A stretch of DNA of 64,000 nt, taken from Myxococcota bacterium (GTDB taxonomy: Bacteria; Myxococcota_A; JAVEVO01). Below the pieces are notes generated by a model. It was not told the DNA's origin. It saw only the letters and a list, made by a program, of their open reading frames with translations, and did no database searches. The stretch covers positions 25,493 to 89,492 of the forward strand of contig JAVEVO010000003.1 in the NCBI GenBank assembly GCA_034005005.1. The letters run 5' to 3'. A program made the translations under genes and the position numbers. How positions within the stretch are numbered: position 1 is the stretch's first letter; every line of letters starts with the position of its first letter. Below, in pieces: positions 3,460 through 53,645 of the stretch.

Positions 3460-3481
3460 GCGAGGAGTCCAGGAGCAGGCC

Positions 3482-31186: not shown

Positions 31187-32914
<1,728 letters not shown>

Positions 32915-32973
32915 GGGGGACGGCGGGCGGCGCCGGGGTCCTGGGGCTGCCGGGGGGCGGGGGCCCGCGGCGC

Positions 32974-33345
32974 TCAGCCCTGCACGAGCGCCAGGGGCAG
33001 CCAGAGGAGGTAGCTGACCGCGACCGCACCCCCGCCGGCGATGGCCAGCAGGGCGAGCAGGCCGACCTGTCGCTGCCCGGCCCAGCTCCGGGAGTAGCCG
33101 ATCGCCATCCCTCCCAGACAGACCGTCACCAGCGCGAGGGCGAAGGGGAGGATGAAGAGGAGGCGGTCGGCCGTGCCGGCGGCGGGAGCGAGCAGCAGCG
33201 CGTGGGTCGCGGCCAGCAGGCCGCCGAAGCGCTGCTGCAGCAGCAGCAGGGCGGCGGCGTCGAGGATCATCAGGCCGAGCCCGAGCCAGCGCAGCCAGGC
33301 CAGCCGCCCGGCGTGTTCGCCGGCGGCCGCGGTCGTCTCCGCCAT
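32974..33345 (-). CDS. small membrane protein (3-4 TM), hypothetical
   Basis: ATG 33345 preceded by GGAGGG. Hydrophobic Leu/Ala-rich ORF at the C-terminal end of a long track ORF. Confidence 0.45.
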   Translation of the reverse strand: MAETTAAAGEHAGRLAWLRWLGLGLMILDAAALLLLQQRFGGLLAATHALLLAPAAGTADRLLFILPFALALVTVCLGGMAIGYSRSWAGQRQVGLLALLAIAGGGAVAVSYLLWLPLALVQG

Positions 33346-33534
33346 GGTCGTCCCTCCGGGCCCCGGGCGGGGCCACCGGAGGCGCAGTATGGCGGGCTCG
33401 CCACCTCCCGGCAAGGGCCTTGTGGTGTTCTCTCCGCTTGACAACGGGCGGCGTCTATCCCAACTTGAGCCGATCCCATCCCCCGGTCTCCCGGTCCGCC
33501 GCTGGATGGTGTCCGGGACGACGGGGCCGGTGGG

Positions 33535-34797
33535 GTGTGGGCACCCATGTCGCTGCTGCTGTCGCTGCTGGTGCTGCTGGCCTTGCTGGTCGGGGCCGGC
33601 GCGTGGGAATACCTCGCCCACCGGCGCAACCTCCGCTCGATCCGCATCCGCATCCACGTCAACGGCACCCGGGGCAAGTCCTCCGTGACCCGCCTGGTGG
33701 CCGCGGGCCTGCGCGCCGGCGGCTTGCGGACCTTCGCCAAGACCACGGGGACCCTCCCGCGGATGATCATGCACGACGGGCGGGAGTACCCGGTGTTCCG
33801 GCCGGCCAAGGCGAACATCATCGAGCAGCTCCGCATCGTCTCCCTCGCCGCGTCGGAGCGGGCCGACGCCCTGATCATCGAGTGCATGGCCCTGCAGCCG
33901 GCCCTGCAGAGCCTGACCGAGCTGAAGATGGTGCGGGCGACCATCGGCGTGATCACCAACGCCCGCCCCGATCACCTCGACGTCATGGGCCCGAGCGAGG
34001 AGAATGTCGCCCTGGCCCTGCTCGGCTCGACGCCCGTCGGCGGCGTGCTCTGCACTGCGGAGCGTGACTACCTGCCCTTGTTCGCCCACGCCTGCGCGGA
34101 TCGGGGCAGCCGGCTCGCGGCGATCTCGGCCGCGCAGGCCGACGCGATCCCCGACGAGACCATGGCGCGCTTCTCCTACAAGGAGCACAAGGAGAACGTC
34201 GCCCTGGCCCTGCAGGTGTGCGCGGAGGCCGGCGTCCCGCGGGAGGTCGCGCTCGCGGGGATGATCCGCACGCCGCCCGACCCGGGGGCGATGCAGGCGT
34301 ACCCGGTCGAGTTCTTCGGCCGGGACATCGTCTTCTACAACGGCTTCGCGGCCAACGACCCGGAGTCCTCGGAGCGGATCTGGCAGATGGCCGTGGACCG
34401 GCACCCCGAGCACGCCACCCGGATCATGCTGCTCAACTGCCGCGCCGATCGCCCCGATCGGTCGCGCCAGCTCGGGGAGGCCGTGCCCTCCTGGACCCGG
34501 GCCGATCACTACGTCGTCATGGGGAGCGGGACCTACGTCTTCGTCAAGTACGCCGCCCTCGCCGGGCTCGATCCCACGAAGGCGGTCTACGCCGAGGGCT
34601 TCTCCACCGAGCGGATCTTCGAGACGATCGTCGGCCTGTGTCGTCACAAGACCCTGGTGATGGGCATCGGCAACATCGGCGGCGGAGGCCTCGAGCTCGT
34701 CGCCTACTTCCAGAACCGGACCTTGCTGCCGGAGATGTCCGCGCCGGAGGAGGAGCAGTTCGCCCTCCCGGCGTCGGCTCGGGTCGGAGGCCACTGA
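33535..34797 (+). CDS. pgsB: poly-gamma-glutamate synthase PgsB/CapB (Mur-ligase-like amide ligase)
   Basis: Close motif-level match to B. subtilis PgsB: IRIHVNGTRGKSSVTRL, KTTGT, IIECMALQP, ITNARPDHLDVMGP, PPDPGAM, NGFAANDPESS, LNCRADRPDRS, GIGNIGGGG. The likely start is ATG 33547; GTG 33535 is also possible. Confidence 0.85.
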   Translation: MWAPMSLLLSLLVLLALLVGAGAWEYLAHRRNLRSIRIRIHVNGTRGKSSVTRLVAAGLRAGGLRTFAKTTGTLPRMIMHDGREYPVFRPAKANIIEQLRIVSLAASERADALIIECMALQPALQSLTELKMVRATIGVITNARPDHLDVMGPSEENVALALLGSTPVGGVLCTAERDYLPLFAHACADRGSRLAAISAAQADAIPDETMARFSYKEHKENVALALQVCAEAGVPREVALAGMIRTPPDPGAMQAYPVEFFGRDIVFYNGFAANDPESSERIWQMAVDRHPEHATRIMLLNCRADRPDRSRQLGEAVPSWTRADHYVVMGSGTYVFVKYAALAGLDPTKAVYAEGFSTERIFETIVGLCRHKTLVMGIGNIGGGGLELVAYFQNRTLLPEMSAPEEEQFALPASARVGGH

Positions 34798-35252
34798 TGG
34801 AACTGATAACCCTGTCGGTGGGATTGGGGCTGGTGGTCAGCCTGGTCTTCTCCGAGCTGCTCGGCGCGGCCGCCGGCGGGATGGTCGTTCCGGGCTACAT
34901 CGCCCTCAGCCTCGACCGCCCCCTGACCGTGCTGCTGACGATCTTCGCTGCGGTGCTGACCTTTCTGCTGGTCCACGCCCTCGGGACGATCATGATCCTC
35001 TATGGTCGTCGGCGCACCGTGCTGATGATCCTCGTGGGCTTCATCATGGGTGCCTTGCTCCGGCAGGTCGGAAGCCTGCCCCTCAGCTACGGCTCCCTCG
35101 ACCTGAGCGTCGTCGGCTACATCATTCCGGGGCTCATCGCCATCTGGATCGATCGACAGGGGATGTGGGAAACCCTGGCCACCCTGGTCACGGCGAGCGT
35201 CGTGGTGAGGCTGGGATTGATCCTGATCACGGGCGGGGAGATGGCGCTGTGA
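34797..35252 (+). CDS. pgsC: poly-gamma-glutamate biosynthesis membrane protein PgsC/CapC
   Basis: ATG overlaps the pgsB stop (TGATG). Motifs GMVVPGYIAL, ILYGRRR and IIPGLIA match PgsC closely. Confidence 0.8.
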   Translation: MELITLSVGLGLVVSLVFSELLGAAAGGMVVPGYIALSLDRPLTVLLTIFAAVLTFLLVHALGTIMILYGRRRTVLMILVGFIMGALLRQVGSLPLSYGSLDLSVVGYIIPGLIAIWIDRQGMWETLATLVTASVVVRLGLILITGGEMAL

Positions 35253-36394
35253 AGAAGATCTACTGGCGACCGGGGAAGGTATCCCGGCGTATTCATCTAT
35301 TCGTTGCATTGATGGCGGCCTTGGGTCTTTTGACGGTCGAGACCGTCAAGACCCGGACCAAGCAGCCCCACTATGCCGAGAAGATGAAGGCTGCCCGGTT
35401 GATGCGCGACTCGATGACCGCGATCCGTGACTACCGGTTGAAGCGCCTCGGCCCCATCGATCGCGAGGCCGATCCCGCGGGCTCCGGGATGATCGGTACC
35501 CTGATGTCGCCGATCACCAGCAACACCGGCAACCTCGAGGCGAAGCAGACCACGGTCAACCCCAACTGGGCCGCGGTGCTGGTCGATCTGCTGAAGCGGG
35601 CCGGGGTCAAGAAGGGCGACTACATCGCGATCGGCTTCTCCGGCTCCTTCCCCGCGATGAACCTGGCGACCTACTGCGCGGCCGCGGCCCTCGAGCTGAA
35701 CCCGGTCGCGATCTCCGGGGCCTCGGCTTCCATGTGGGGGGCCAACGAGCCAGATCTCACCTGGCTAAAGATGGAAAAGCTGCTCTATGACCAAAAGATC
35801 CTTCCATTCCGTTCATCTGCGGCAACTCTTGGTGGACAAGGCGATAAAGCGCTCGGAATGAGCAAGAAGGGTCTCGAGCTTCTCCAGAAAGCGATCACGG
35901 AAAGCGGACTTCCGATGATCTATACCAGTGTTCCCAAAGAAAACATCGATATTCGCATGGAAACGTACAAGTCCATCGCAAAAGACAGCCCGATCGTTGT
36001 CTATGTCAACGTGGGTGGTGGGACGGTCTCCGTGGGCACGGCCGTCGGCAAGAAGCTGTTCAAGCCCGGCCTCAACCGGCGCCCTCCCGCCCGGGCCCTC
36101 TCCCTCGACTCGGTGATGACCCGCTTCGCGAAGGACGGCGTGCCCATCATCCACCTCAGCAACATCGTCGAGCTGGCCCGCCGCTACCAGTTGCCCCAGA
36201 CCCCGCAGAGCGTGCCGTCGCCGGGTGACGGGGTGATCTTCTGGCGGGAGGAGTACAACCTCTGGGCCGCCTCCGCGATCCTCGCCCTGCTCTGCGGCCT
36301 CCTCTTCGTGCTGATCCGCATGGACCTCGGGGCCCGGCTGTTCAGCGGTCCGAGCAAGAGCGCGGGCCCCCAGCAGCCGCAGCAGATGGTCTGA
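35249..36394 (+). CDS. membrane-anchored poly-gamma-glutamate system-associated protein (not CapA/PgsA metallophosphatase-like); possibly the PGA-system protein family seen next to pgsBC in Gram-negatives
   Basis: GTG overlaps the pgsC stop (GTGA). N-terminal TM helix (IHLFVALMAALGLLTV) and C-terminal TM helix (ILALLCGLLFVLI). It has no similarity to CapA motifs. It contains two low-GC stretches. Confidence 0.5.
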   Translation: MKKIYWRPGKVSRRIHLFVALMAALGLLTVETVKTRTKQPHYAEKMKAARLMRDSMTAIRDYRLKRLGPIDREADPAGSGMIGTLMSPITSNTGNLEAKQTTVNPNWAAVLVDLLKRAGVKKGDYIAIGFSGSFPAMNLATYCAAAALELNPVAISGASASMWGANEPDLTWLKMEKLLYDQKILPFRSSAATLGGQGDKALGMSKKGLELLQKAITESGLPMIYTSVPKENIDIRMETYKSIAKDSPIVVYVNVGGGTVSVGTAVGKKLFKPGLNRRPPARALSLDSVMTRFAKDGVPIIHLSNIVELARRYQLPQTPQSVPSPGDGVIFWREEYNLWAASAILALLCGLLFVLIRMDLGARLFSGPSKSAGPQQPQQMV

Positions 36395-36398
36395 GCCG

Positions 36399-36989
36399 GT
36401 GGCCCCCCCGCTCGTCCTCGCCAGCACCAGCGTTAGCCGCCAGCGCCTCCTCGCCCGGCTCGGGCTGCCCTTCGTCAGCGAGCGGCCCGCGGTCGACGAG
36501 ACCCGGCTGCCGGGGGAGTCGCCCGCGCAGCTCGTCCAGCGGCTCGCCCGGGCCAAGGCCGAGGCGGTGAGCCAGCGGCATCCCGCGGCCCTGGTGCTCG
36601 GCGGCGACCAGGTCGCGGTCCTCGATGACGAGATCCTCACCAAGCCCGGTACGCCCGCGCAGGCGGTCCGCCAGCTCTCCCTGCTCCAGGGTCGCACCCA
36701 CCAGCTCTTGACCGCGATCGCCCTGGTCCGGCGGGACGCCGGCTTTCTCCGGGAGGCGCTGGACGTCACGGAGCTCACCATGCGCCCCTGGCGCGAGGCG
36801 GAGCTGGCGGCCTACGTCCAGCACGATGCGCCCCTGGACTGCGCCGGCTCCTACCGGCTGGAAGGTCTCGGGATCGCTCTGTTCTCTCGGTGGCAGGGCG
36901 TGGACCCCAGCGCGGTGGAGGGGCTGCCGCTGACGATCCTGGCCGCCTGGTTCGCCGAGGGAGGCCTGCCGCTCTTCGGTCCGGGCTGA
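36399..36989 (+). CDS. maf: Maf-like nucleoside triphosphate pyrophosphatase (septum formation protein Maf)
   Basis: Motifs LVLASTSVSRQRLL, LVLGGDQV and KP match the Maf/YhdE family. Confidence 0.8.
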   Translation: MAPPLVLASTSVSRQRLLARLGLPFVSERPAVDETRLPGESPAQLVQRLARAKAEAVSQRHPAALVLGGDQVAVLDDEILTKPGTPAQAVRQLSLLQGRTHQLLTAIALVRRDAGFLREALDVTELTMRPWREAELAAYVQHDAPLDCAGSYRLEGLGIALFSRWQGVDPSAVEGLPLTILAAWFAEGGLPLFGPG

Positions 36990-36998: not shown

Positions 36999-38273
36999 AT
37001 GCGCCCGAAGGTCTTCCGGGATCCCGTGCACAACGCCATCGCCCTGGAGCGTGACGACCCGGGCGACCGGCTGCTGCTCGCCCTGATCGACACCCCCGAG
37101 CTGCAGCGGCTGCGCCGGATCCGGCAGCTCGGCCTGGCGGGGCTGGTCTTCCACGGTGCGGAGCACAGCCGCTTCACCCACTCCCTCGGGGCGATGCACC
37201 TCGCCCGACGGATCCTCGAGGCCGTGCGGGGGCAGCTCGAGCTCGGCCCGGACGAGCGGACCGCAGTGCTCGCGGCGGCCTTGCTGCACGACCTCGGCCA
37301 TGGCCCGCTCTCCCACAACGGCGAGGGGCTCTGGGGTGGGCGGCACGAGGAATGGAGCAGCCGCCTGGTGCTCGACCCGGGGACCGCGGTGCACCAGTTG
37401 CTCGCCGCGCACGAGCCGACCCTCCCCCGGCGGGTCGACGAGCTCGTGCGAGGGGTCGCCCGCCCGCGCACCCTGGGCAAGATCGTCTCCGGCCAGCTCG
37501 ACTGCGACCGTCTGGACTACATCCTGCGCGACGGCTGGGCCCTCGGCGTCTCTGTGACTTTCGACCTGACCAGGCTGCTCGGGATGGTCCTCATTGACCA
37601 GATCGAGGACCGGCTGGTGATCGATCGGCGGGGCCACGACGCGGTCGAGGCCTACCTGATCGCCCGCTACCATCTGTTCCGCAGCGTCTATCACCACAAG
37701 ACGGTGCGGGCCGCGGGCGCGATGCTCGGGGCCGCGGTCCGGCGCGCGTCCCTCCTCGTCGCCTCGGGGCGCCTCTCCCCGGGCGGGGTGGCCCCGGGCC
37801 TCGCCCGGGTCCTGGGCGGGGGCTCCCCCACCCTCGGCGAGTACCTCGCGCTCGACGACGGCGACCTCTGGAGCGCCCTGAAGGTCTGGGCCGGCGCGAC
37901 CGATCCCCTGCTCGCCCGGCTCGCGGGCGGGCTGCTGCACCGCCGGCTGTACAAGGGGCTGCAGGTGGTCCGGCAGGACCCGGCGGCGCAGGCCGCGCAG
38001 CTCGCCCGGGCGCGGGACCTGCTGCGGTGCGCAGGCCACGACCCGGATTTCGAGCTGCTCGTCGACACCGCCCGCGACCAGCCCTACCGTCCGTACTCGC
38101 CCGCGGAGCTCGGCCCGGAGGGCATCTTCGTCCGCTGGCCCGACGGCAACCGGGAGATCTCCGAGACCTCGGGGGTGGTCCGCAGCCTGCTCCAGGAGAC
38201 CACCGATACCCGCTGGTTCGTCCCGGAGGAGCTGCGGCCCGAGCTGCGTCGGCTGCTCGGCGCGACGGCCTGA
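36999..38273 (+). CDS. HD-domain metal-dependent phosphohydrolase (dGTPase-related family)
   Basis: VHNAIALE..LIDTPELQRLRRIRQLG..FHGAEHSRFTHSLGAMHLA, HD motif (LLHDLGHGPLSH), DCDRLDYILRD. Confidence 0.75.
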   Translation: MRPKVFRDPVHNAIALERDDPGDRLLLALIDTPELQRLRRIRQLGLAGLVFHGAEHSRFTHSLGAMHLARRILEAVRGQLELGPDERTAVLAAALLHDLGHGPLSHNGEGLWGGRHEEWSSRLVLDPGTAVHQLLAAHEPTLPRRVDELVRGVARPRTLGKIVSGQLDCDRLDYILRDGWALGVSVTFDLTRLLGMVLIDQIEDRLVIDRRGHDAVEAYLIARYHLFRSVYHHKTVRAAGAMLGAAVRRASLLVASGRLSPGGVAPGLARVLGGGSPTLGEYLALDDGDLWSALKVWAGATDPLLARLAGGLLHRRLYKGLQVVRQDPAAQAAQLARARDLLRCAGHDPDFELLVDTARDQPYRPYSPAELGPEGIFVRWPDGNREISETSGVVRSLLQETTDTRWFVPEELRPELRRLLGATA

Positions 38274-40238: not shown

Positions 40239-41933
40239 TCACTCCATGGGGATCGGCTTGAGCGTCACCCGGCCGTCCTTCTTCTGGATGCGGAAGCGGA
40301 CCATCCGGCAGCCGAGCTGCTCCTTGATGCCCGCCTCGGTGCTCCGGAGCTTGGCGACGAACTTGTCCAGGGTGACGCCCTGCACGCCCTCGCCCGTCTC
40401 CTGGCGGGCCGCGAGGTACTCGTCGAACAGGCGACGGAAGTAGCTCTCCTCCGTCTCGATGGCGAGCTCCTGGGTGAGCGCCCCGGCCTCGATGCGCTCG
40501 ACCCGCACGTCGCCGGAGCTGCCGAGGTTGTTGCTGTCGGCCTCGGCGAGGCCGCCGCTGGGCCGCCGCATCCCGCCCGCGCCCAGGGGGAGGCCGACCA
40601 GGTCGGGCCGCTTGCGGACCTGGCTCACCTCGTCGATGAACAGGGGATCCTTCCAGCTCCCGTCCCCGCGCGTCCGGCTCTCGCACTCCTCCTGGGTGGA
40701 GTCCTCGTCTTCGGGCAAGGGTTTGCCCAACAGCGTGCAGATCATCAGGTTGAGGCTGTTGCCGAGGTTGCCGACGAGGCTGTCCCGGCGGGAGCAGGGG
40801 AAGTTGTACTCGAAGTTGCCGTTGATGACCTCGTGGATGCCCTGGTCCAGCAGCTCGAGGGAGCGGATGAAGTGGCGGACGATGACCGCGCTGACGATGA
40901 GCAGGAAGAGGAAGACGCCCGCCCCCGCCAGGGGGATGTAGACGTTGAGCTCGTGGATCGGCTGGAGGCGCTTGCCCTGGTCCACGAGGACCAAGAACCC
41001 CCCGGTGGAGGCCGGCAGCAGGGAGCCGCTGGCGCGGAACTTGCGATCCCGCAGGAGGTAGACGGTGTCGACGCTCACCCGCCCGGTGGTGCTGGCCTCG
41101 GTCTGCTCGAGGATCTGCTTCTGGGCCTGCTCGATGATCTCCAGGGGCAGGGAGCCGGAGGCCGCCTCCTTGCCATAGTAGAAGATCACCTCGGCGCCGA
41201 AGCGCTTCTGGAGCCGGATCGCCTCGGCGTCGCTGCGGCGGAAGCCGAGGATCACCGCGCCTGCGAAGACCTCGGCGGGCGCGGCCGGCTGGACCGCGGG
41301 CTCGCCGGCCGGGAGCGCGGCCGGCGGGGCGGGGGGCTCCTCGGGCGGGGAGCCGAAGATCGGGGCGATCGCGACCTCCAGGGGTCCGCTGTTGGCCGGC
41401 CGCCAGCTCGTGTGGTCCGGCTGGCGGGTGCGGCCGACCTCGAGGACCTGCGGCAGCTCGGCCGCGACCGAGTTGCCCCAGGCCGCGTAGTCGGTGAAGC
41501 GGGCGACGACGGTGCCCGCGGCATCGACGACGTACATCTCGTCGGGGACGATCTGGCGGCGGTCCTCGAGCGCGTGCGCGGGGGACTCCTTGCCCTTGTC
41601 GGCCTCCCGGGCGGCCACCAGCTTGGCGTGCCAGACGTTCAGCTCCTCCCAGACCTGCTGGTGCCGCTCGTCGAGCCCCTCGATCCCCTCGGCGTAGGTC
41701 GTCAGCAGCTTCTCGCCGAGCATCGGCCAGGCCGCGACCTGGCTCGCCAGGGCCTCGTGCCCGTGGGCGTCGAGCGCGCCGGCGCGCAGCACTCCTTCGC
41801 GCGCGACGGTCAGGTCACCGACCGAGTCCTGCTCGAGGATGCCGACGAAGTACTCGTTGGTGACGACCAGGCTCCCGGCCGTGATCAAGGCGACTGCGGT
41901 AAGGAGGACCAGCGATATCTTGAGGTTGAACAT
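40239..41933 (-). CDS. membrane sensor protein with periplasmic domain, HAMP domain and conserved C-terminal domain of a myxobacterial family
   Basis: N-terminal signal anchor (LVLLTAVALITAGSLVV), periplasmic region, second TM (VFLFLLIVSAVIV) and a HAMP-like helix (RHFIRSLELLDQGIHEVINGNFEYNF). The conserved tail is ESYFRRLFDEYLAARQETGEGVQGVTLDKFVAKLR...RFRIQKKDGRVTLKP. Confidence 0.6.
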   Translation of the reverse strand: MFNLKISLVLLTAVALITAGSLVVTNEYFVGILEQDSVGDLTVAREGVLRAGALDAHGHEALASQVAAWPMLGEKLLTTYAEGIEGLDERHQQVWEELNVWHAKLVAAREADKGKESPAHALEDRRQIVPDEMYVVDAAGTVVARFTDYAAWGNSVAAELPQVLEVGRTRQPDHTSWRPANSGPLEVAIAPIFGSPPEEPPAPPAALPAGEPAVQPAAPAEVFAGAVILGFRRSDAEAIRLQKRFGAEVIFYYGKEAASGSLPLEIIEQAQKQILEQTEASTTGRVSVDTVYLLRDRKFRASGSLLPASTGGFLVLVDQGKRLQPIHELNVYIPLAGAGVFLFLLIVSAVIVRHFIRSLELLDQGIHEVINGNFEYNFPCSRRDSLVGNLGNSLNLMICTLLGKPLPEDEDSTQEECESRTRGDGSWKDPLFIDEVSQVRKRPDLVGLPLGAGGMRRPSGGLAEADSNNLGSSGDVRVERIEAGALTQELAIETEESYFRRLFDEYLAARQETGEGVQGVTLDKFVAKLRSTEAGIKEQLGCRMVRFRIQKKDGRVTLKPIPME

Positions 41934-42047
41934 CCCAGCCGTCTCCTCGATGATGCGGGGCGATTCTAAGAGAAGCCGGCGACGAGGTCAATTCGCTGGG
42001 CGCCGCTCGAGCTGGCTCGCGCGCCGCTTCTTCCCTACAATACACCC

Positions 42048-44114
42048 ATGATTGACCCCCGGCGATCACCTGCTCGGCTGCTCTGCTCCCTCCTGCTCGG
42101 GATCGGTGGGTGCACGGACGGCTGCGAGGGCCAGGGCGCCGGGGCGGGTGACCTCGCGGCCGCGGAGTGCCTCCGGGACGGAGACTGCCCCGAGGGCGCC
42201 GCGTGCGTGGACGGCCGCTGCACCTTGCTCTTCCTCCCCGACGGCGGGGAGGCCCTCCCCGACGGCGGTCTGGTGGACGCGGCCGGCGCGGCCGGCGACG
42301 GCGCCCGCCCCCTCGACGGGCCGGAACGGGATGGGGCGGCCACCGCCCCGCCCCTCGACCAGGACGGCGACGAGGTGCCCGACGTCCTGGACCTCTGCCC
42401 CACGGTGGCCGATCCCGCGCAGCGTGACGAGGACCAGGACGGCGTCGGGGACCTCTGCGACCTCTGCCCCGCGGTCCCCGATCACCTCCAGCGGGACCTG
42501 GACGGCGATCGGGTGGGCGACGGCTGCGACCGTTGCCCCCGCAGCCCGGGCCCGGGCACGGCCGACGGCTGCCCGCCCGATGCCGGCCCCTGGCTGGACG
42601 GCGACGGCGACGGGATCCCCGACGTCGACGACAACTGCCCGGTGAGCGACAACCCCGACCAGCGGGACACCGACGGGGACGGAGTCGGCAACCGCTGCGA
42701 CAACTGCCCGGCCCTCGCCAACTGGGACCAGGAGGACCGGGAGGGGGATGGCAAGGGCGACCGCTGCCAGACCTTCACGGGCTGGGACCGGGACGGCGAT
42801 CGGCTCCCCGACGACCGGGATCGCTGCCCCGAGGTCTGGGACCCGCAGCAGGGGGACGGCGACGCCGACGGGGTCGGCGACGCCTGCGACGTCTGCCCCA
42901 CGGTGGCCGACGCCGCGCAGGCCGACGCGGACGGGGACCGGATCGGGGACCGCTGCGATCCCGCGCGGCGCGACACGGACGGCGACGGGGTGCGGGATCG
43001 GGACGACCTCTGCCCGACCCTGGCCGCCTCCGGGCTGGAGAGCGACCTCGACGGGGACCGGATCGGGGATCGCTGCGATCCCCAGCGGTTCTTCGGGGAC
43101 ACGGACGGGGACGGCTTCGTCGACCTCGTCGATCCCTGCCCCACGGTCCCCGATCCCCCGGGGACCGCGCTGGCCGTGCGCATCTCGCCGAAGTGCCCGG
43201 GGGGGCCGGGGATCGATCGGGACCGCGACGGGCTCCCCGATGCCGTCGACACGTGTCCCCACCTCGCCAACCCCACCAACCACGACGGGGACGGGGATGG
43301 GTGGGGCGACCTGTGCGATCCCTGCCCCCTGCTGGGCCCGCGCTCGGCCGCGGACCCGCCCTGGGGGAGCTGCGCCGGCGACCTCGACGGCGACCTCCTG
43401 CCCGATGGGGCGGATCCTTGCCCCCTGGTGCCCGGCACCTTCGGCTGCGTCGACGATCGGGATGGGGACGGCTTGCCCGATGCGGTCGACCCTTGCCCCT
43501 TCTTGCCCTCGGCCGCGGACGTCGATCCCTGCCTCTCCGACGGGGACGGGGATGGGGTGGGCTTGTTCCAGGACAACTGCCCCGCCCTCGCCAATCCCGA
43601 TCAGCAGGATACGGACGGGGACGGGATCGGTGATCTCTGTGACCTCTGTCCCTTCGTCGCCCAGCATCCTGGTACGATCGTCTCTCCGTGCCTCGACGAC
43701 CAGGACGGCGACGGCCGCCCCGACGGGCTGGACCGCTGTCCGGCCGTGCCCGATCCGCTGCAGGGCGACCTCGACCACGATGGGGTGGGTGACCTCTGCG
43801 ACAACTGCCTGCTCGTCGCCAACGCCACCCAGGAGGACGTCGCGGGGGACGGGGTCGGCGACCGCTGCCAGGACGATTTCGACGGGGACGAGGTCGACGA
43901 TGGGCGCGACAACTGCATCCAGGTCGCCAACCCGGGCCAGGAGGACCGGGACGGGGACGGGACCGGCGACCGCTGCCAGGAGGATGCGGACGGCGACGGC
44001 ATCGGGGACTTCTGGGACCTCTGTCCTGGTCTCCCGGACCCCCTGCAGCTCGACCTCGACGGGGACGGGGTCGGCGACGCCTGCGCGCCTCCCCCGTTTC
44101 GCCGATCGCCCTGA
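42048..44114 (+). CDS. secreted thrombospondin type-3 repeat (calcium-binding) protein
   Basis: Signal peptide. About 25 repeats of DxDxDGxxDxxDxCP (for example DQDGDEVPDVLDLCP, DEDQDGVGDLCDLCP). Confidence 0.8.
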   Translation: MIDPRRSPARLLCSLLLGIGGCTDGCEGQGAGAGDLAAAECLRDGDCPEGAACVDGRCTLLFLPDGGEALPDGGLVDAAGAAGDGARPLDGPERDGAATAPPLDQDGDEVPDVLDLCPTVADPAQRDEDQDGVGDLCDLCPAVPDHLQRDLDGDRVGDGCDRCPRSPGPGTADGCPPDAGPWLDGDGDGIPDVDDNCPVSDNPDQRDTDGDGVGNRCDNCPALANWDQEDREGDGKGDRCQTFTGWDRDGDRLPDDRDRCPEVWDPQQGDGDADGVGDACDVCPTVADAAQADADGDRIGDRCDPARRDTDGDGVRDRDDLCPTLAASGLESDLDGDRIGDRCDPQRFFGDTDGDGFVDLVDPCPTVPDPPGTALAVRISPKCPGGPGIDRDRDGLPDAVDTCPHLANPTNHDGDGDGWGDLCDPCPLLGPRSAADPPWGSCAGDLDGDLLPDGADPCPLVPGTFGCVDDRDGDGLPDAVDPCPFLPSAADVDPCLSDGDGDGVGLFQDNCPALANPDQQDTDGDGIGDLCDLCPFVAQHPGTIVSPCLDDQDGDGRPDGLDRCPAVPDPLQGDLDHDGVGDLCDNCLLVANATQEDVAGDGVGDRCQDDFDGDEVDDGRDNCIQVANPGQEDRDGDGTGDRCQEDADGDGIGDFWDLCPGLPDPLQLDLDGDGVGDACAPPPFRRSP

Positions 44115-44141
44115 GCAGGGGCCGCCGAGCTGGAGCAAACA

Positions 44142-44170
44142 TTGACTCGTCGCCTGGCGGCTGGTAGAAC
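44142..44170 (+). promoter_or_regulatory. candidate sigma70-type promoter (TTGACT - 17 nt - TAGAAC) upstream of flp pilin
   Basis: Sequence match only. It lies ~75 bp upstream of the flp ATG. Confidence 0.3.
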
Positions 44171-44245
44171 CAGACCAGGCTCGAGGCGATTGCCCATGGC
44201 CCGAGCCCTGGCGTGAGGCCAATTGTGGGCGTGAGGAGCAGGCTG

Positions 44246-44413
44246 ATGGATACTCTCAAGCGACTATGGCAGGACGAAGAGGCAGCGACGGCCGTCGAGT
44301 ACGCCATCATCGCCGCCGTCGTCGGCGTTGCGCTCATTGGTACCCTCGTCCTCTTCCGGGAGAGCATCAAGGGGATGCTGACCAAGGCGGCCCAGACCAT
44401 CTCCAATCAGTGA
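44246..44413 (+). CDS. flp: Flp/Fap family type IVb pilin
   Basis: Classic Flp prepilin motif EEAATAVEYAIIAAVVGVALIG. ATG 44246 preceded by GAGGAG. 55 aa. Confidence 0.75.
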   Translation: MDTLKRLWQDEEAATAVEYAIIAAVVGVALIGTLVLFRESIKGMLTKAAQTISNQ

Positions 44414-44464
44414 GCCGCGGCCGGCCGGCCTCGCGCCGGCCCCTCCCTTGACGGTCGCCTCGGG

Positions 44465-44989
44465 ATGGGCTCGCTCGGAAACCAGTGGGGGTGGCAGCAG
44501 TGGCTGCTCTACGGTGGGCTGCTCGCGGCCGCCCTGCAGGATCTGTCCTGGCGACGGATCCCCAACTGGTTCTCCCTCCCTTTCCTCGCCGTCGGCCTCG
44601 TGGTCCAGGGGCTCACGGGCGGCGGCCGGGGTCTCCTCGTCGGCTTGCTCGGGGCCGCGGTCGGTCTGCTGCTGCTCTTGTTGCCCTTTTCCCTCCGGCT
44701 GCTCCGGGGAGGTGACGTGAAGCTGCTGGCCGCGATGGGGGCCTGGCTCGGCCCGCTGCCCGTCCTGGTGGCCACCCTGGTCGGGGCCGTCCTCGCCGGA
44801 GTGCTCGTCGCCGGGCTGCTGGTGGGCCGGCCGGCCTTGCGCCGGGAGGTCGTCGCCAACCTCCGGGGGCTCGTGCTGGGGCTCGGTCTGCCCCGGCCAC
44901 CCGTGCGCCCACCCCACCTCGCGGTCCCCCTGGGGACGGCCCTGGCTGCCGGTGGGGTGCTGACCCACCTCTTCGGCTGGGGGAGCTGA
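44465..44989 (+). CDS. cpaA: prepilin peptidase CpaA/TadV (A24 family)
   Basis: Polytopic membrane protein with DLSWRRIPN and GGDVKLLAAMGAWLG motifs. Lies directly downstream of flp. Confidence 0.75.
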   Translation: MGSLGNQWGWQQWLLYGGLLAAALQDLSWRRIPNWFSLPFLAVGLVVQGLTGGGRGLLVGLLGAAVGLLLLLLPFSLRLLRGGDVKLLAAMGAWLGPLPVLVATLVGAVLAGVLVAGLLVGRPALRREVVANLRGLVLGLGLPRPPVRPPHLAVPLGTALAAGGVLTHLFGWGS

Positions 44990-45447
44990 TGCCTCTGCCC
45001 GACACCCAAGGAGTCCCGCCGGTCCGGCGCTGGCGCTGGCCGTTGCGTGCCCGGACGCGGGGCGGGGCCGCGCTCGAGTTCATGCTCGTCTTGCCCATCG
45101 TCCTGCTGGTGCTGGTGGGGATGCTCGCCCTGAGCAACTTCCTCTCCACCCGCTACTTCCTCACCGCCAGCGCGATCCACGCCGCCCGGGTCTGCACCGT
45201 CGCCCGGATGACCAACCGGCCCTGCGCCGAGGCGGCCGTCAACCAGTACCTGCAGGGCCCGATCCGCAACCGCTGCGCGGCCCTGACGACGACCGCCGCG
45301 GTCACCCGCCTGCCCGGTACTTCGGTTGACGTCTTCGCGGTGAACGTGCAATGTACCTACAGCGTGGACATGGGCGGCACGCTCCTGACGAACCAGGGCA
45401 TCCAGCTCACGACCCTGCAGGGCAAGGGGAGTATGCCCGTCCAGTAG
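44989..45447 (+). CDS. tadE: TadE-like pilus assembly protein
   Basis: ATG overlaps the cpaA stop (TGATG). TadE-like N-terminal motif GGAALEFMLVLPIVLLVLVGM. Confidence 0.65.
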   Translation: MPLPDTQGVPPVRRWRWPLRARTRGGAALEFMLVLPIVLLVLVGMLALSNFLSTRYFLTASAIHAARVCTVARMTNRPCAEAAVNQYLQGPIRNRCAALTTTAAVTRLPGTSVDVFAVNVQCTYSVDMGGTLLTNQGIQLTTLQGKGSMPVQ

Positions 45448-45541
45448 GCCCCCGGCACGGTGATCCTCTGCGAGCTGTTCGGGCGCGATCCCCGTTCGTG
45501 TCGGTGATGAATGACGATATCCGTGGTGAGGTGAGATCGTC

Positions 45542-46426
45542 GTGGCGCAAGAAAAGGGTTCTTCCGGCATCGGAGTCCTCGTCTTCACGATCCTGGCTCT
45601 GCTGTTCACCGGTATTACCGCATGGCTGCTCGCCATGATGCTATCCGGGACCCAATACACCAAAGAACCGGTCAAGAATGTGGTCGTCGCCAAGGTGAAC
45701 ATCAGTCCGCTCACGCCGATCACCGAAGAAAACCTCAAGATCGTCAAGATGCCCGAGTCCTCCGTCCCGGCCAATCACTTCACCGACATCAAGGAGCTGG
45801 CGGTGGATCCCCCCTTCCTGCCGGCGGTCCAGCTCTACCCGGGCGAGGTGATCCTCCGGGAGAAGCTCGCGGATCCGAAGAGCGGGCGCGGGCTCTCCGT
45901 GCTGATCCCGCCGGGGATGCGGGCGATGGTCGTCCGGCTGGAGGACGCCGCGGTGCAGGCGCGGCTGTTCTACCCCGAGGCGACGGTGGACGTCATCGCC
46001 ACCGTCCGGCTGATCAAGGAGAGCACCGTGGTCAGCAAGATCATCGTCCAGAACGTGAGGGTGCTCGCCGTGGGGACCACGGTCGATCCCTCGCGCATGG
46101 CCGAGCCCGCGGGCGCCTCCGGTGGGCTCGGGAACAAGACCGAGGAGAAGGACTCCGTGGTCACCCTGCTGGTCACGCCCTTGCAGGCCGAGCAGTTGAT
46201 GCTCGCCCAGCGCGAGGGCAAGCTGGACCTGGTGCTGCGCAACCAGCAGGACGTCGAGGCGACCTCCTCCATGGGCGCCGAGCCCGAGGACCTCTTCCCC
46301 GAGCTCACCACCGGGGAGACCGAGGACAAGGACCGCGAGCGTCGGGAATCGGTCCAGCGCATCCTCAGCTCGCCGCGCTTCAAGAGAGACGGTGCGCCCG
46401 CGGGCGGCGGGATCCAGATCCAATGA
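45542..46426 (+). CDS. cpaB: Flp pilus assembly protein CpaB/RcpC
   Basis: GTG start. N-terminal TM helix, then a SAF/BON-like region (VVVAKVNISPLTPITEENLKIVKMP). The C-terminus (VTLLVTPLQAEQLMLAQREGKLDLVLR) is typical of CpaB. Confidence 0.75.
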   Translation: MAQEKGSSGIGVLVFTILALLFTGITAWLLAMMLSGTQYTKEPVKNVVVAKVNISPLTPITEENLKIVKMPESSVPANHFTDIKELAVDPPFLPAVQLYPGEVILREKLADPKSGRGLSVLIPPGMRAMVVRLEDAAVQARLFYPEATVDVIATVRLIKESTVVSKIIVQNVRVLAVGTTVDPSRMAEPAGASGGLGNKTEEKDSVVTLLVTPLQAEQLMLAQREGKLDLVLRNQQDVEATSSMGAEPEDLFPELTTGETEDKDRERRESVQRILSSPRFKRDGAPAGGGIQIQ

Positions 46427-46521
46427 CCGCCCCTGGCCTCCGGAGCCCCGAGGCGCCTCGGGTGCCTCGCTCCGTCCACGGCTCGCCGGCGCGGGCGAGC
46501 AGACCGTCGAGAGAGGGAGTC

Positions 46522-47934
46522 ATGAAGAAGCTGGGCTGTCGGGCGGTGCTGGCGCTGGTCCTCCTGCTGGGGCTCGCTGGCTCCCCGCCGGGCTGGGCGG
46601 CCGAGGGGGTCGTCCAGGTGCCCCTCGGCGGCGTCAAGCAGATCGCCTACCAGGCGCCGATCCTCCGGCTGTCCGTGGGCAACCCCGAGCTGGTCGAGGT
46701 CTCCTCCGTGTCCGGGAGTAGTACTGAAGTCCTGCTCAAGGGGCGGCAGATCGGCTCGACCAGCCTCGCGGTCTGGGGACGCGACGGCGGGCAGGCCTCC
46801 TTCGTCGTGCAGGTGGTCGCGGACGTCGACGCGCTCGGCAGCGCGATCAAGGACCTCTTCCCGGGGGAGCAGGTCGCGGTCCAGGTCGCGGGCGAGACGC
46901 TCCTGTTGAAGGGCACCGTCTCGGGGCCCGAGGCCTTGCAGGCCGTCTCCGACTGGGCCGAGGGCTACCGCTCCGGCCTGGGCAAGGAGGGGACCCGCCT
47001 GCGGGTGCTCAACCGCTTGCAGCTCGCGACCCCCCAGCAGGTGCAGCTCGAGGTGCGCTTCGCCGAGGTCTCCCGCACCTCCCTGCGGCGGCTCGGCCTC
47101 TCCCTGCTCGGCCACAAGGACGGCAACACCATGGGCGTCTTCTCCAGCACGGAGGAGTTCGGCATCCGCCCGAGCGGCGCGTTCAACGACACCCTGCCCC
47201 TGCCCGTGCCCTTCACCGAGGCGGCGAAGCTGGTCTTCATCACCAAGCCCGACGCCAGCTTCCCCTTCAGCGCGGTGCTCTCGGCCCTGTCCGCCAACGG
47301 CGTGGCCAAGACCCTGTCCGAGCCGACGCTGGTCGCGCTCTCCGGTCAGCAGGCGAGCCTGCTGGTGGGCGGGGAGCAGCCGTACCTCGTGCCCCTCGGC
47401 TCCCAGGGGCAGTACACGATGGAGTGGAAGACGTACGGCATCCAGCTCGACTTCCTGCCCATGGTGCTCGCGGACCAGACCATCCAGCTCAAGGTCAACA
47501 GCGTCGTCTCGGACCTCGACAAGTCCAACGCGATCAACCTGGCCGGGGTCGCGGTCGCGCCCCTGACCACCCGCTCCAGCAGCACCACGGTGCGGCTGCG
47601 CTCGGGGCAGGGCTTCGCGATCGCCGGCATGCTCTCCGACCGCCTGCGCAGCACCGTCGCCAAGGTGCCCCTGCTCGGCGACATCCCGATCATCGGGATG
47701 CTCTTCCGCACCACCCAGTCCCAGCGCGAGGAGACCGAGCTGGTGGTCGTCGTCACCGCCCGCCTGGTCCAGCCCGTGGACGGTGGCGAGCTCGGTCCCT
47801 TGCCCGGCGAGAGCGACCTGGCCGACCCCAACGGGGTGCAGCTCTTCCTCATGGGCTGGGGCGAGGTCGAGCCGAAGAAGGCGACCAGCGGGACCGGGCG
47901 TGGCCGGCCGGCTGGCCGGGGCGGCTATCGGTAA
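46522..47934 (+). CDS. cpaC: Flp pilus secretin CpaC/RcpA
   Basis: ATG 46522 after GAGAGGGAG. Signal peptide. The secretin C-terminal domain (LSEPTLVALSGQQASLLVGGEQPY, VPLLGDIPIIGMLFR) matches. The 45622.. track ORF is a read-through. Confidence 0.85.
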   Translation: MKKLGCRAVLALVLLLGLAGSPPGWAAEGVVQVPLGGVKQIAYQAPILRLSVGNPELVEVSSVSGSSTEVLLKGRQIGSTSLAVWGRDGGQASFVVQVVADVDALGSAIKDLFPGEQVAVQVAGETLLLKGTVSGPEALQAVSDWAEGYRSGLGKEGTRLRVLNRLQLATPQQVQLEVRFAEVSRTSLRRLGLSLLGHKDGNTMGVFSSTEEFGIRPSGAFNDTLPLPVPFTEAAKLVFITKPDASFPFSAVLSALSANGVAKTLSEPTLVALSGQQASLLVGGEQPYLVPLGSQGQYTMEWKTYGIQLDFLPMVLADQTIQLKVNSVVSDLDKSNAINLAGVAVAPLTTRSSSTTVRLRSGQGFAIAGMLSDRLRSTVAKVPLLGDIPIIGMLFRTTQSQREETELVVVVTARLVQPVDGGELGPLPGESDLADPNGVQLFLMGWGEVEPKKATSGTGRGRPAGRGGYR

Positions 47935-47940
47935 GACGGG

Positions 47941-49194
47941 GTGACGCTCGCCGGGGCTGCCCCGGGAGCCAGGGAGGTCGAGACGGTGACCGGAAGGGGA
48001 CCGCAACGAGACGGAGGGCCGGTCTTCACGGGCAGCCCTCTCGCCCCGCCGCCGGACAGCTACCAGGACCCGCGAGATCACTCGCAGTTCCACACCATCA
48101 TCCGCCGGATCACCGGCGAGGAGAGCTACGAGGGCCCCAAGCCACCCTTGCCGCCCGGACCCCGTCCGCCCTCGCCGAAGGTCCACGTCGGCGGGGGGCC
48201 CGCGCCCCCGGCGCCGCCCTCCTTCCCGGCCCCGGGCTTCGCGCCACCGCCGCCGCCGGTGAACGTCCCGGCGCCGCCGGGGTTCTCTAGTCCTTTCGTC
48301 TCGGCGCCGGCCATGGGCGTCCCAGCCGCCGGCGTCTCCCCCTTCATCGAGCAGCCGGCCGAGCCGGCCGCCCCCGCCGCGGCCGCCCCCGAGGCGGCAC
48401 GCCACGGTCGCCTGGTGGCCCTGTTCGGCTGCAAGGGCGGCGTCGGCAACACCTTCGTCGCGATCAACCTCGCGGCCGCGCTCGCCCGCACCGCCAACGT
48501 CTGCCTGGTCGACATGGACCTGCAGATGGGCGACATCCTCACGAGCCTGAACCTCGAGGGGCGCTGCGCGGTCTCCCACCTGATCCGGGAGGTGCGCACC
48601 GGCGGCGAGACCTTCAATCCCCGCACCGTGCTCGACCGTCACGAGGGGAGCGGCGTCTACGTCCTGTCCCAGGTGCACTGCCTCGAGGAGCTCGACCTGC
48701 TCAAGCCGAGCGAGCTGGTCAACCTGTTCGGCTTCCTCAAGACCCGCTTCCCCTACACGATCATCGACGGGCTGCGCGGCTTCGACGACAACTCCATGGT
48801 CCTGCTCGACGCGGCGGACATCATCTTGCTGGTCGTCAGCCAGGACGTGCCCTCCGTGCGGGCCGCGAGCCGGAGCATGGAGATCTTCCGGCGCATCGGC
48901 TACGACCCGGACAAGGTGCGCATCGTCGTCAATCGATACTACAAAAAGGCTCTGGTCACGCCGAGTTACATCGGTATGTCCCTGAAGACGCCCCACGTCG
49001 AGCTGGTCCGGCGCGACTTCCCCCTCGCGCTCAAGTCGCTCAACGAGGGGATCCCCCTGCACCTGATGGCGCCGCAGAGCAAGATCGCCCTCGATATCGA
49101 CAAGCTCGCCGACGCCTTGCGGGATCGGGACGGCCGGGCCGCGGCAGCCGAGCAGCCGGGCGGCCTGCTGCAGAAGCTCAGGTTCTGGAAGTAG
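47941..49194 (+). CDS. cpaE: CpaE/TadZ-like pilus assembly ATPase (MinD/ParA family) with Pro-rich N-terminus
   Basis: Deviant Walker A (LFGCKGGVGNTFVAINLAAAL) and MinD-like body. GTG start. Confidence 0.75.
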   Translation: MTLAGAAPGAREVETVTGRGPQRDGGPVFTGSPLAPPPDSYQDPRDHSQFHTIIRRITGEESYEGPKPPLPPGPRPPSPKVHVGGGPAPPAPPSFPAPGFAPPPPPVNVPAPPGFSSPFVSAPAMGVPAAGVSPFIEQPAEPAAPAAAAPEAARHGRLVALFGCKGGVGNTFVAINLAAALARTANVCLVDMDLQMGDILTSLNLEGRCAVSHLIREVRTGGETFNPRTVLDRHEGSGVYVLSQVHCLEELDLLKPSELVNLFGFLKTRFPYTIIDGLRGFDDNSMVLLDAADIILLVVSQDVPSVRAASRSMEIFRRIGYDPDKVRIVVNRYYKKALVTPSYIGMSLKTPHVELVRRDFPLALKSLNEGIPLHLMAPQSKIALDIDKLADALRDRDGRAAAAEQPGGLLQKLRFWK

Positions 49195-49196
49195 CC

Positions 49197-50504
49197 ATGA
49201 AGTTCACCGAGCGATACCAGCAAGGGGTCGAGAGCGGCGCTGGCGTCAAGGGCGGGCGCTCCCTCGAGGACATCAAGCGCGACCTGCACGGCAAGGTCAT
49301 CGACCGGATCGACGTCTCGGCGATCCAGAACATGAGCCGCGAGCAGCTCCGCACCCAGTTGCGCGGCGTCGTCGAGCAGCTCGTGGCCATGGAGCAGCTC
49401 CCGCTGAACCAGGCCGAGAAAGAGAAGATCGTCGTCTCCCTGCTCGACGACATCCTCGGGCTGGGGCCCCTGGAGATCCTGCTCGCCGATCCCGACGTCA
49501 GCGACGTGCTGGTCAACAACCACAAGTCGGTCTACGTCGAGAAGAAGGGGCGGCTGCAGCTCACCAGCGTGCGGTTCCGCGACGACCGCCAGCTCCTCAA
49601 CGTCATCAACCGCATCGTCAGCCGGATCGGCCGCCGCATCGACGAGTCCTCGCCCATGGTCGACGCACGGCTGCCCGACGGCTCCCGGGTCAACGCGATC
49701 ATCCCGCCCCTGGCCATCGACGGCCCGGTCCTCTCCATCCGCCGGTTCGGCTCCAACCCCTTGCGCCACGACGACCTCGTCCGCAACGGCAGCATCTCGC
49801 CGGCCATGATCAGCTACCTCCACGCCGCGGTGGCGGCGAAGAGCAACGTGCTGATCTCGGGGGGGACCGGGTCGGGCAAGACGACCCTGCTGAACATCCT
49901 CGCGAGCTTCATCCCGGTCGAGGAGCGGATCGTCACCATCGAGGACTCCGCCGAGCTGAAGCTGCAGCAGGAGCACGTCGTCCGGCTCGAGTCGCGGCCG
50001 CCCAACATCGAGGGGCGGGGCGCGGTGACGATCCACGACCTGGTGAAGAACTCCCTGCGGATGCGGCCCGACCGCATCGTCGTCGGCGAGATCCGGAGCG
50101 TCGAGGTGCTCGACATGCTCCAGGCCATGAACACCGGCCACGAGGGGTCCATGGCGACGATCCACGCCAACTCCTCGGCCGATGCCATGTCCCGGCTGAT
50201 GACGATGATCGCCATGGCCGGCACCAAGCTCTCCGAGGAGAGCATGGTCCAGATCATCGGCCGGGCCATCCACCTGGTGGTCCAGCTCAACCGGATGACC
50301 GACGGCGGCCGGCGGGTGGTCAGCATCTCCGAGGTCCTCGGCTTCGAGGGAGCCACGGTCCACACCCAGGACGTCTTCCTCTTCGAGCAGACCGGCTTCG
50401 ATCCCCAGGGGCGGATCCTCGGGGCGTACGTCAACCGGATCCCGTCGGCCATGGGGGCCCGGTTCCGCAAGTTCGGCGTCAACCCCGGGATCCCGGTGAG
50501 GTAG
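49197..50504 (+). CDS. cpaF: CpaF/TadA type IV pilus assembly ATPase
   Basis: Walker A ([14 protein letters not shown]), [10 protein letters not shown] and His box ([13 protein letters not shown]). Confidence 0.9.
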
Positions 50505-50508
50505 CGCC

Positions 50509-51468
50509 ATGGCTCCCTGGTTCATCCTCGCGGCGAGCCTCACCTGCTTCTTCGTCCTGATGACGGGGTATCTGCTCTGGCGACGGCGCAAGCTGAGGCT
50601 GGAGCACCTCGTCCGGGAGCGGCTGGCCATCGAGCGCTCCCACCCCGGGGCGGGAGCCGGCACTCTGATGCAGGAGGACCGTCGGCGCATCGCGGTCATC
50701 GACCGCCTGCTCCAGGAGACGGGCACCCAGCAGCGGCTGCAGGACCTCCTCGACCAGGCGGGCGAGCCGACCTCCCCGGGCAGCTTCGTGCTGCGCTCCT
50801 TGCTCTGGGGCCTGGGACCGGCCCTGGTCCTCGGCACCTTGACCCTCAGCCCGGGGGTCGCCCTGCTCTGCTGCCTCGGCGGGCTGCTCCCCCTCGTCCT
50901 GCTCCTGCAGCGGCGCGGCAAGCGGATGCAGAAGATCGACGCGCAGCTCCCCGTGGCCCTCGAGATCATGACCATCTCCCTGCGGGCCGGCCACTCCCTG
51001 GCGCAGACCATCGAGCTGTCGGCCAACGAGCTGCAGGCTCCCCTCGGCGACGAGCTGCGTCGCGCCGCGGAGGAGCACCGCCTGGGCCGCTCCCTGGAAG
51101 AGGTCCTGGTGAGCATGAGCCGCCGGCTCCCCGGCTGTCGGGCCCTGCGGACCTTCGTCGTCGCGGTGCTGGTGCTGCAGCAGACGGGCGGCAACCTCAT
51201 CGAGATCATCGAGAAGATCATCGAGACCTTGCGGATGCAGACCCAGTACGAGCGCAAGCTCGGCGCGATGACCGCCGAGGGCAAGAGCTCGGCGCGCATG
51301 CTCTCCGGGCTGCCCCTGGCCTTCATCGCCCTGGCGTATCTGGCCGATCCGGGCTACATCGGGATGCTCTTCACCGACCCCATCGGCCAGAAGCTGCTCA
51401 TCGTCAGCGTCACCCTCTGGTGCGTCGGGATCCTCTGGACCCGCAAGCTGATCAGCCCGGCCTCGTAG
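50509..51468 (+). CDS. tadB: TadB (T2SS-F-like inner membrane platform protein)
   Basis: GspF-like domain with TM segments. Sits in the tadB position after cpaF. Confidence 0.75.
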
Positions 51469-51483
51469 CAGGAGGAGGACTCG

Positions 51484-53621: not shown

Positions 53622-53645
53622 GCGCCGCCTAGGTCGGAGGCGAGC

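Follow-up and report, generated by a model that had tools for sequence, protein, structure and literature searches.

Gene content of the pgsB-pgsC-pgsW locus

The window analysed here is a 64,000-nt stretch of contig JAVEVO010000003.1 from a Myxococcota bacterium (assembly GCA_034005005.1). In it we found three consecutive genes, pgsB, pgsC and pgsW, which, judged by the families of their products, form a real poly-gamma-glutamate (PGA) synthase cassette, an ordinary representative of the known pgsBCW type (Table 1). The first-pass annotation of this DNA had read the first two genes as pgsB and pgsC and had advised a check with hidden Markov models (HMMs). In this check, run with TIGR04012, TIGR04011 and the PGA-system families, all three proteins scored above the cut-offs of their families, PgsB and PgsC being far above the curated NCBIfam values. 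PgsB reached 456.2 bits with the equivalog model TIGR04012 (cut-off 222.7), its residues 11-392 corresponding to model positions 3-380 of 380, and PgsC reached 129.5 bits with the equivalog model TIGR04011 (cut-off 96.45). The third protein scored 339.4 bits with the subfamily model TIGR04332 (cut-off 100), residues 17-323 corresponding to model positions 4-307 of 307.

By its family membership, PgsB is the poly-gamma-glutamate synthase, an ATP-dependent amide ligase. It contains the P-loop NGTRGKSS at residues 43-50, matches Pfam Mur_ligase_M at 7e-09, and has a hydrophobic segment at residues 1-25, which is its N-terminal membrane anchor. PgsC shows several hydrophobic segments and matches the Pfam family Caps_synth_CapC (PF14102) at 1.9e-33.

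The overlaps TGATG and GTGA between the three genes, which had already been noticed in the first-pass annotation, were confirmed by the junction sequences. At the pgsB/pgsC junction (...CAC TGATG GAA...) the stop codon TGA (34795-34797) and the start codon ATG (34797-34799) have one base in common, and at the pgsC/pgsW junction (...CTG TGA AG...) the start codon GTG (35249-35251) overlaps the stop codon TGA (35250-35252). These overlaps couple the translation of pgsB, pgsC and pgsW. A GGGGAGA stretch is located 7 nt 5' of the GTG of pgsW. The gene calls of the Joint Genome Institute (JGI) on a 99%-identical contig place the starts of pgsC and pgsW as in the window, and the GTG at 35249 is also supported by the length of the PgsW homologues, since most of the 120 best ones have 380-384 amino acids.

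Table 1. Features of the pgsBCW locus and its immediate surroundings, with positions in the window.
Feature	Position	Strand	Remarks
Small membrane-protein gene	32974-33345	-	123 amino acids, three predicted hydrophobic segments; divergent from pgsB
pgsB	33547-34797	+	416 amino acids from ATG 33547 (JGI call on 99%-identical contig); alternative start GTG 33535
pgsC	34797-35252	+	Polytopic membrane subunit of the synthase; TIGR04011, Caps_synth_CapC
pgsW	35249-36394	+	381 amino acids, 'poly-gamma-glutamate system protein'; TIGR04332
Tract of AT-ending codons in pgsW	35726-36020	+	295 bp, codons 161-257; G+C content at third codon positions (GC3) ~0.5-0.6 vs ~0.95 elsewhere; sharp bounds
maf	36399-36989	+	TIGR00172, 154 bits; gap of 4 nt after pgsW
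HD-domain phosphohydrolase gene	36999-38273	+	Pfam HD and HD_assoc_2; gap of 9 nt after maf

The PgsW family and the spread of the cassette

In the first-pass annotation the locus was regarded as a candidate for a novel system. This idea had to be given up, since the third gene belongs to a curated and widespread family: TIGR04332 is a curated NCBIfam family, and RefSeq uses the gene symbol pgsW for a family member. In a HMMER scan over 1.84 billion cluster representatives, the family comprised 1,291 clusters (50% identity) at E<=1e-3, and a scan with one genome per GTDB species revealed at least 561 genomes with a PgsW relative.

The loci were compared using the best 80 related loci from the species-genome scan, which are drawn from at least five phyla. 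Twenty-seven of them are labelled Myxococcota, Myxococcales, Polyangia, Haliangium or Anaeromyxobacter, while the other hosts belong to Desulfobacterota/'Deltaproteobacteria', Planctomycetota (with the cultured Kolteria novifilia), Spirochaetota (Leptospira fluminis), Nitrospirota and Lentisphaerota. The cassette is thus typical of double-membraned phyla, in line with the earlier suggestion of a Gram-negative-style PGA system. One of the loci (L007, DYRY01000075.1) originates from a metagenome-assembled genome (MAG) labelled 'Anaeromyxobacter dehalogenans', but its flanks have a G+C (GC) content of ~28% and the label is almost certainly wrong. MAG labels among the loci should therefore be taken with caution.

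The composition of the cassette is strongly conserved. In all 80 loci pgsC is located directly upstream of pgsW. Of the 76 loci that extend far enough to include pgsB, 75 have it (75 of 80 overall); four of the five loci without pgsB are at contig ends and the fifth (L033) contains masked gaps. All-against-all clustering of the open reading frames (ORFs) revealed no fourth conserved gene (exporter, racemase or ggt) and no other family in more than 7 of the 80 loci, the larger ORF clusters being antisense shadow ORFs of the cassette itself. With no further conserved gene family, the cassette is a self-contained three-gene unit. Across Myxococcota, Planctomycetota, Spirochaetota and Desulfobacterota its proteins share ~45-65% identity, and the length of PgsW is nearly constant at 381 amino acids. 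PgsW and PgsB gave rough neighbour-joining trees that largely agree with each other and mostly follow the phylum labels, which fits a co-evolving unit.

Natural fusions were also observed in the PgsW family (P0178, P0170, P0209, P0216, P0218, P0232 and P0248). In P0178 PgsC is joined to PgsW, and in P0170 PgsW is joined, without an intervening membrane helix, to Peptidase_C26 (gamma-glutamyl hydrolase family). Through these two fusions PgsW is physically linked with PgsC and with gamma-glutamyl chemistry. Several family fusions with 670-734 amino acids have an additional membrane helix, and their C-terminal domain of ~280 amino acids has no Pfam match.

Predicted structure and conserved residues of PgsW

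The AlphaFold2 model of PgsW (56 sequences) is of high confidence, with a predicted local distance difference test score (pLDDT) of 90.1 and a predicted template modelling score (pTM) of 0.85. In it, helices at residues 13-32 and 338-357 enclose an alpha/beta domain containing parallel strands, and the hydropathy profile agrees with this. The third gene product had been described as a bitopic membrane protein. It is indeed a membrane protein, but a single span does not apply, since PgsW has both an N-terminal and a C-terminal membrane helix. Basic residues precede the first helix (K2, K3, R7, K10, R13 and R14), and the segment after the second helix is rich in Lys and Arg. According to the positive-inside rule, basic flanks of membrane helices are cytoplasmic, and thus both ends of PgsW would be located in the cytoplasm and the domain in the periplasm. 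The model predicts, in short, two membrane helices around a periplasmic alpha/beta domain. Among solved structures, none closely resembles it.

In the subfamily with 381 amino acids, no variation was seen at Y5, W6, P8 and M380, and almost none at V381. The termini (residues 1-8 and 380-381, corresponding to 35249-35272 and 36386-36391 in the window) are kept across phyla, reading MKKxYWRP at the beginning and MV at the end of the protein. This conservation suggests that the termini contact PgsB or PgsC, docking onto them at the cytoplasmic side.

Family-wide, down to 23% identity, the invariant residues are P135, A144, G164, G195, G196 and G256 (positions numbered on PgsW of the window), and D75, G83, T90, G94, K99, N104, S133, S161, D199, R236, N254 and G257 are present in at least 90% of the family. 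PgsW of the window itself has all six invariant residues together with S133, K99, D199, R236 and N254. Most of the conserved positions are located in loops directly after predicted beta-strands, and it is in such loops that Rossmann-like folds usually bind their ligands. The conserved glycine-rich pocket formed by SGSFP (131-135), S161 with GA (164-165), GG (195-196) with D199, NxGG (254-257), K99 and R236 is the likely binding or catalytic site. Neither Pfam searches nor fold comparison led to recognition of a catalytic motif of a known enzyme class in PgsW.

Proposed function of the cassette

We propose, with a probability of roughly 0.7, that the chromosomal, vertically inherited pgsB-pgsC-pgsW cassette is the PGA synthase form of double-membraned bacteria. 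PgsB, held in the membrane by its one N-terminal helix, would join glutamate via the gamma-carboxyl group using ATP, and PgsC would be its polytopic partner, so that PgsB-PgsC would be the polymerase and conduit in the inner membrane; both roles are proposed on the basis of equivalog membership and of the work on Bacillus. PgsW would take the position of the unrelated PgsA/CapA of Bacillus. It would span the inner membrane twice with its short conserved termini in the cytoplasm, and its alpha/beta domain of ~300 residues would accept or process the growing chain at the periplasmic side of the inner membrane. The analysis itself establishes which genes are present, how the cassette is built and conserved, and the topology and fold predicted for PgsW; we infer the polymer that is made and the role of PgsW, which would be a required third subunit handling the chain.

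Several points weigh against this proposal. In the literature we found no experiment linking a pgsW-type cassette to PGA, and nothing relevant on pgsW, on TIGR04332, or on PgsB in myxobacteria. Surface delivery of the polymer is unexplained, as genes for outer-membrane export, a racemase, a gamma-glutamyl transferase or CapD are neither present in the window nor conserved beside the cassette. Further, the uncultured relative L085 also has a large protein with a PGA_cap domain near its cassette, and thus PgsW and CapA-like domains are not strictly exclusive. Last, Francisella's capBCA locus is required for virulence, but mutants in capB and capC retain the known capsule, and the product of this locus is unknown (PMC4688374, PMC2897883).

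Genes for export, anchoring, racemization or degradation are absent from the window, and none recurs next to the cassette in the related loci. A product that stays in the periplasm, together with an enzymatic PgsW, is therefore a live alternative, although we regard it as unlikely. Instead of a long extracellular PGA capsule, PgsB and PgsC would then make a short or periplasm-retained gamma-glutamyl chain or link one to a component of the envelope, and PgsW would be a trimming or transferring enzyme, a transferase or hydrolase with a Ser/Lys-type site. It speaks for this alternative that no outer-membrane export or anchoring gene is conserved in the 80 loci, that the Francisella mutants mentioned above are attenuated in spite of their capsule, that near-invariant polar residues of PgsW (S133, S161, K99, D199, R236, N254, T90 and D75) cluster in glycine-rich loops, and that one protein of the family is fused to a gamma-glutamyl hydrolase-family domain. 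However, PgsB and PgsC exceed equivalog cut-offs trained on true PGA synthases, and PgsW lacks a recognisable motif of a known enzyme class. Moreover, its H302 is not conserved across the wider family, and therefore a classical Ser-His-Asp triad using this residue is unlikely. Besides, a Gram-negative Fusobacterium reportedly releases or carries PGA (Candela et al. 2009, cited in PMC3815933).

It is tempting to speculate, although we consider it doubtful, that in double-membraned bacteria the unrelated PgsA has been replaced by PgsW as a periplasmic enzyme or adaptor of new structure, and that the product may be a gamma-glutamyl polymer or modification kept in the periplasm or membrane. Since the cassette is not accompanied by an outer-membrane partner, it may make something other than a surface capsule.

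Inheritance and base composition

Vertical inheritance, as assumed in our proposal of a PGA synthase form of double-membraned bacteria, is suggested by comparison with the two uncultured relatives L085 and L086. Both show the order pgsB-pgsC-pgsW-maf-HD-pfkB-mtaP followed by a hypothetical gene and, further downstream, flp/tad pilus genes. The identities between the window and L085/L086 are 75/73% for PgsB, 81/76% for PgsC and 72/63% for PgsW, while they are 64/60% for Maf, 68/65% for the HD-domain protein, 71/66% for PfkB and 75/72% for MTAP. The shared position, and the fact that the cassette proteins are about as similar to their counterparts as the products of the flanking genes or more so, indicate that the locus is old and vertically inherited in this lineage. 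Database searches with MTAP and PgsW put the same contigs in the same order. In 78 loci, the GC content of pgsW minus that of its flanks had a mean of -0.002 and the GC content of the cassette follows that of the host, showing that in its base composition the cassette fits its hosts. The horizontal acquisition considered in the first-pass annotation is not supported in view of this shared chromosomal position, the divergence in step with the flanks, and a GC content that tracks the host.

The annotation was right in describing the third gene as compositionally atypical. The GC content is 72.5% for the window, 70.5% for pgsB, 64.7% for pgsC and 62.7% for pgsW. In pgsW, it is 0.59 and 0.46 at codon positions 1 and 2, respectively, and pgsW is below its flanks in most of the high-GC relatives. 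Thus, the GC deficit of pgsW results partly from amino-acid composition at codon positions 1 and 2, and the rest comes from a single tract of AT-ending codons (Table 1), which corresponds to the low-GC patch noticed in the first-pass annotation. This tract has the lowest GC3 of any 97 codons among 22 genes of the window, 0.59 vs 0.72 for the next lowest; a lesser dip is present in codons 7-27 of pgsW (35267-35330). Contigs L082-L084, which are 99% identical to the window, carry the tract unchanged, and its GC3 dip was not seen in L085, L086 or five other high-GC relatives. At the protein level it is closest to a syntenic relative (68% amino-acid identity), other lineages reaching at most 57%. 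No donor was found when the tract was compared segment by segment with all retrieved proteins and loci by blastp and blastn, and Rfam detected nothing within its bounds. The simplest idea would be that a short segment was recombined in from a relative of lower GC content that has not been sampled. In the 3' end of pgsB (34702-34761) there is a sub-threshold Rfam match to rydB (21.7 bits vs a gathering cut-off of 50, E=0.15), which was judged to be due to chance.

It is very improbable that the locus, or at least pgsW, was acquired recently by horizontal transfer. Such a transfer would be in line with the low GC content of pgsW inside a GC-rich window, with the 295-bp tract, whose GC3 is ~0.55, and with the neighbour-joining trees, in which the clade of the window groups with sequences from Desulfobacterota and Spirochaetota and with unlabelled ones, outside the main Myxococcota cluster. 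However, GC3 is 0.96 in pgsB and 0.89 in pgsC, the locus has the same place and the same downstream genes in both relatives, with 63-81% identity for PgsB, PgsC and PgsW vs 60-75% for Maf, HD, PfkB and MTAP, and the contig ranking is the same for MTAP and PgsW. The syntenic relatives do not have the GC3 dip, part of the deficit, as explained above, lies in codon positions 1 and 2, and in most high-GC relatives pgsW is likewise below its flanks in GC content. At most a short intragenic tract, for which no donor was found, was imported. Recent transfer of the whole locus is thus largely refuted, while the position of the window clade outside the main Myxococcota cluster may reflect an ancient transfer or a host that is not a myxobacterium.

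Comparison with known systems

Related PGA synthases are the PgsBCA(E) systems, equal to CapBCA(E), of Bacillus subtilis and B. anthracis, whose PgsB and PgsC are equivalog-level matches to the proteins of the window. In Bacillus as in the window, the third gene is directly downstream, is coupled, and encodes a membrane-anchored protein with a large extracytoplasmic domain. However, PgsA/CapA of Bacillus is a PGA_cap protein (metallophosphatase-like) and not homologous to PgsW. Genes corresponding to pgsE/capE, capD and pgdS of Bacillus-type systems are missing from the window, and the pgsW form occurs in double-membraned phyla. No other PGA-related gene (outer-membrane export, racemase, gamma-glutamyl transferase, CapD, pgsE/capE or pgdS) was found in the window, and tblastn with a PGA_cap protein against it was negative.

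The possibility that the third gene encodes a highly diverged CapA/PgsA, or the first one a Mur ligase or folylpolyglutamate synthase, can practically be dismissed: the Mur_ligase_M domain of the first protein is accompanied by weak matches to MurE, MurD and FolC, but these models give at most 20 bits (cut-offs >160) vs 456 bits for TIGR04012, and PgsW has no match to PGA_cap (PF09587) at E<=10, its profile gave a probability of 0.07% in hhalign against the PGA_cap protein of L085, the His-containing metallophosphatase motifs are not conserved in it, and its predicted fold differs from the metallophosphatase sandwich. Indeed, Pfam gave no match of any kind for PgsW, even at E<=10, no metallophosphatase was among the listed fold matches, and the calcineurin-like four-layer fold with conserved Asp/His metal ligands, by which CapA/PgsA would be recognised, was not found. 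Thus, the third gene is not capA/pgsA, as the first-pass annotation had maintained, and since neither a Mur/FolC identity nor a diverged CapA was found, the basic reading of the genes stands.

A cassette of the same type is annotated on plasmid p1 of Cetobacterium somerae (NZ_CP143320.1), where the RefSeq genes pgsB-pgsC-pgsW are overlapping or abutting and in the same order as in the window. In contrast to the window, which has no ggt, Cetobacterium has this gene near the cassette. PgsW of the window belongs to the subfamily with 381 amino acids, which has the second, C-terminal membrane helix and the conserved tail, whereas the members from Fusobacteriaceae have ~316-346 amino acids and are ~27-30% identical to it. 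We found pgsW in some Fusobacterium and Cetobacterium species. The Gram-negative F. nucleatum, which reportedly makes PGA, is not among the named matches.

Like the window, Francisella tularensis, a Gram-negative bacterium, contains three genes in the order capB-capC-'capA' (FTT0807-0805), the third of which bears the title of TIGR04332: the 'capA' product was named 'poly-gamma-glutamate system protein' by NCBI (PMC5362203, Table 3). Its placement in the pgsW family follows this quoted annotation. Francisella CapA is an inner-membrane protein thought to act with CapB and CapC (PMC4688374, citing Martin-Garcia 2014). The capBCA locus is a virulence determinant with an unknown product, and the O-antigen capsule is still present in capB and capC mutants (PMC2897883).

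In the sections of the CapsuleFinder study cited here (Rendueles et al. 2017, PMC5542703), CapB and CapC are required for a PGA system and CapA is accessory; such systems are described there as present in most phyla and as abundant in Planctomycetes, Fusobacteria and Synergistetes. These rules would count the locus in the window, although the components given in those sections are CapA-E, with no PgsW-like one (PMC5542703).

Neighbouring genes

The locus had been described as located between a Ser/Thr kinase gene and nucleotide-housekeeping genes. The kinase gene upstream and the maf, HD-domain, PfkB kinase and MTA phosphorylase (mtaP) genes downstream of pgsW are indeed present, but a small membrane-protein gene intervenes between the kinase gene and pgsB (Table 1). 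Its reading frame is of the coding type (GC1/2/3 = 0.77/0.62/0.90) and corresponds to a JGI gene call on the 99%-identical contig. The protein has no NCBIfam or PADLOC match; a 42%-identical homologue is encoded in L085, likewise upstream of pgsB but oppositely oriented. In L085 a PGA_cap-domain protein with 827 amino acids is encoded two genes upstream of pgsB (1337-3820, minus strand), where the window has the Ser/Thr kinase gene.

The genes maf and HD adjoin pgsBCW in L085 and L086, while they are adjacent to it in none of the 80 more distant loci. No terminator-like site was detected in 32800-36600, a region that includes the cassette and the pgsW-maf junction. From the gene arrangement we infer that maf and HD are probably co-transcribed with pgsBCW in this lineage, although they do not belong to the conserved cassette.

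Further downstream (40239-54935) there are a gene of the MXAN_5187 family, a gene for a protein with thrombospondin type 3 (TSP3) repeats (~42048-44114), and a Flp/Tad pilus cluster with genes for prepilin peptidase A24, RcpC, a CpaE-like ATPase, two T2SSF proteins, and TPR and VWA proteins. This pilus cluster is syntenic in L085 and L086. The window also harbours several Ser/Thr kinases with TPR repeats and proteins with MopE motifs and TSP3 repeats, which, together with the MXAN_5187 family, fit Myxococcota. The nearest named MTAP homologues are ~60% identical and originate from MAGs labelled 'Deltaproteobacteria', 'Myxococcota' or 'Planctomycetota'. No matches to the defence-system models of PADLOC were found in the window.

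Significance

In summary, annotation of the locus as pgsB, pgsC and pgsW is routine, and the window adds a high-GC environmental example of the cassette but no new principle. The remaining interest lies in the PgsW family as a whole, with its strongly conserved cassette and a third subunit without a solved structural relative. The one studied example is Francisella capBCA, a virulence locus with unknown product. If the product of pgsW-type cassettes is indeed retained in the periplasm or membrane, this would also explain why capBCA matters for virulence although it does not make the known capsule.

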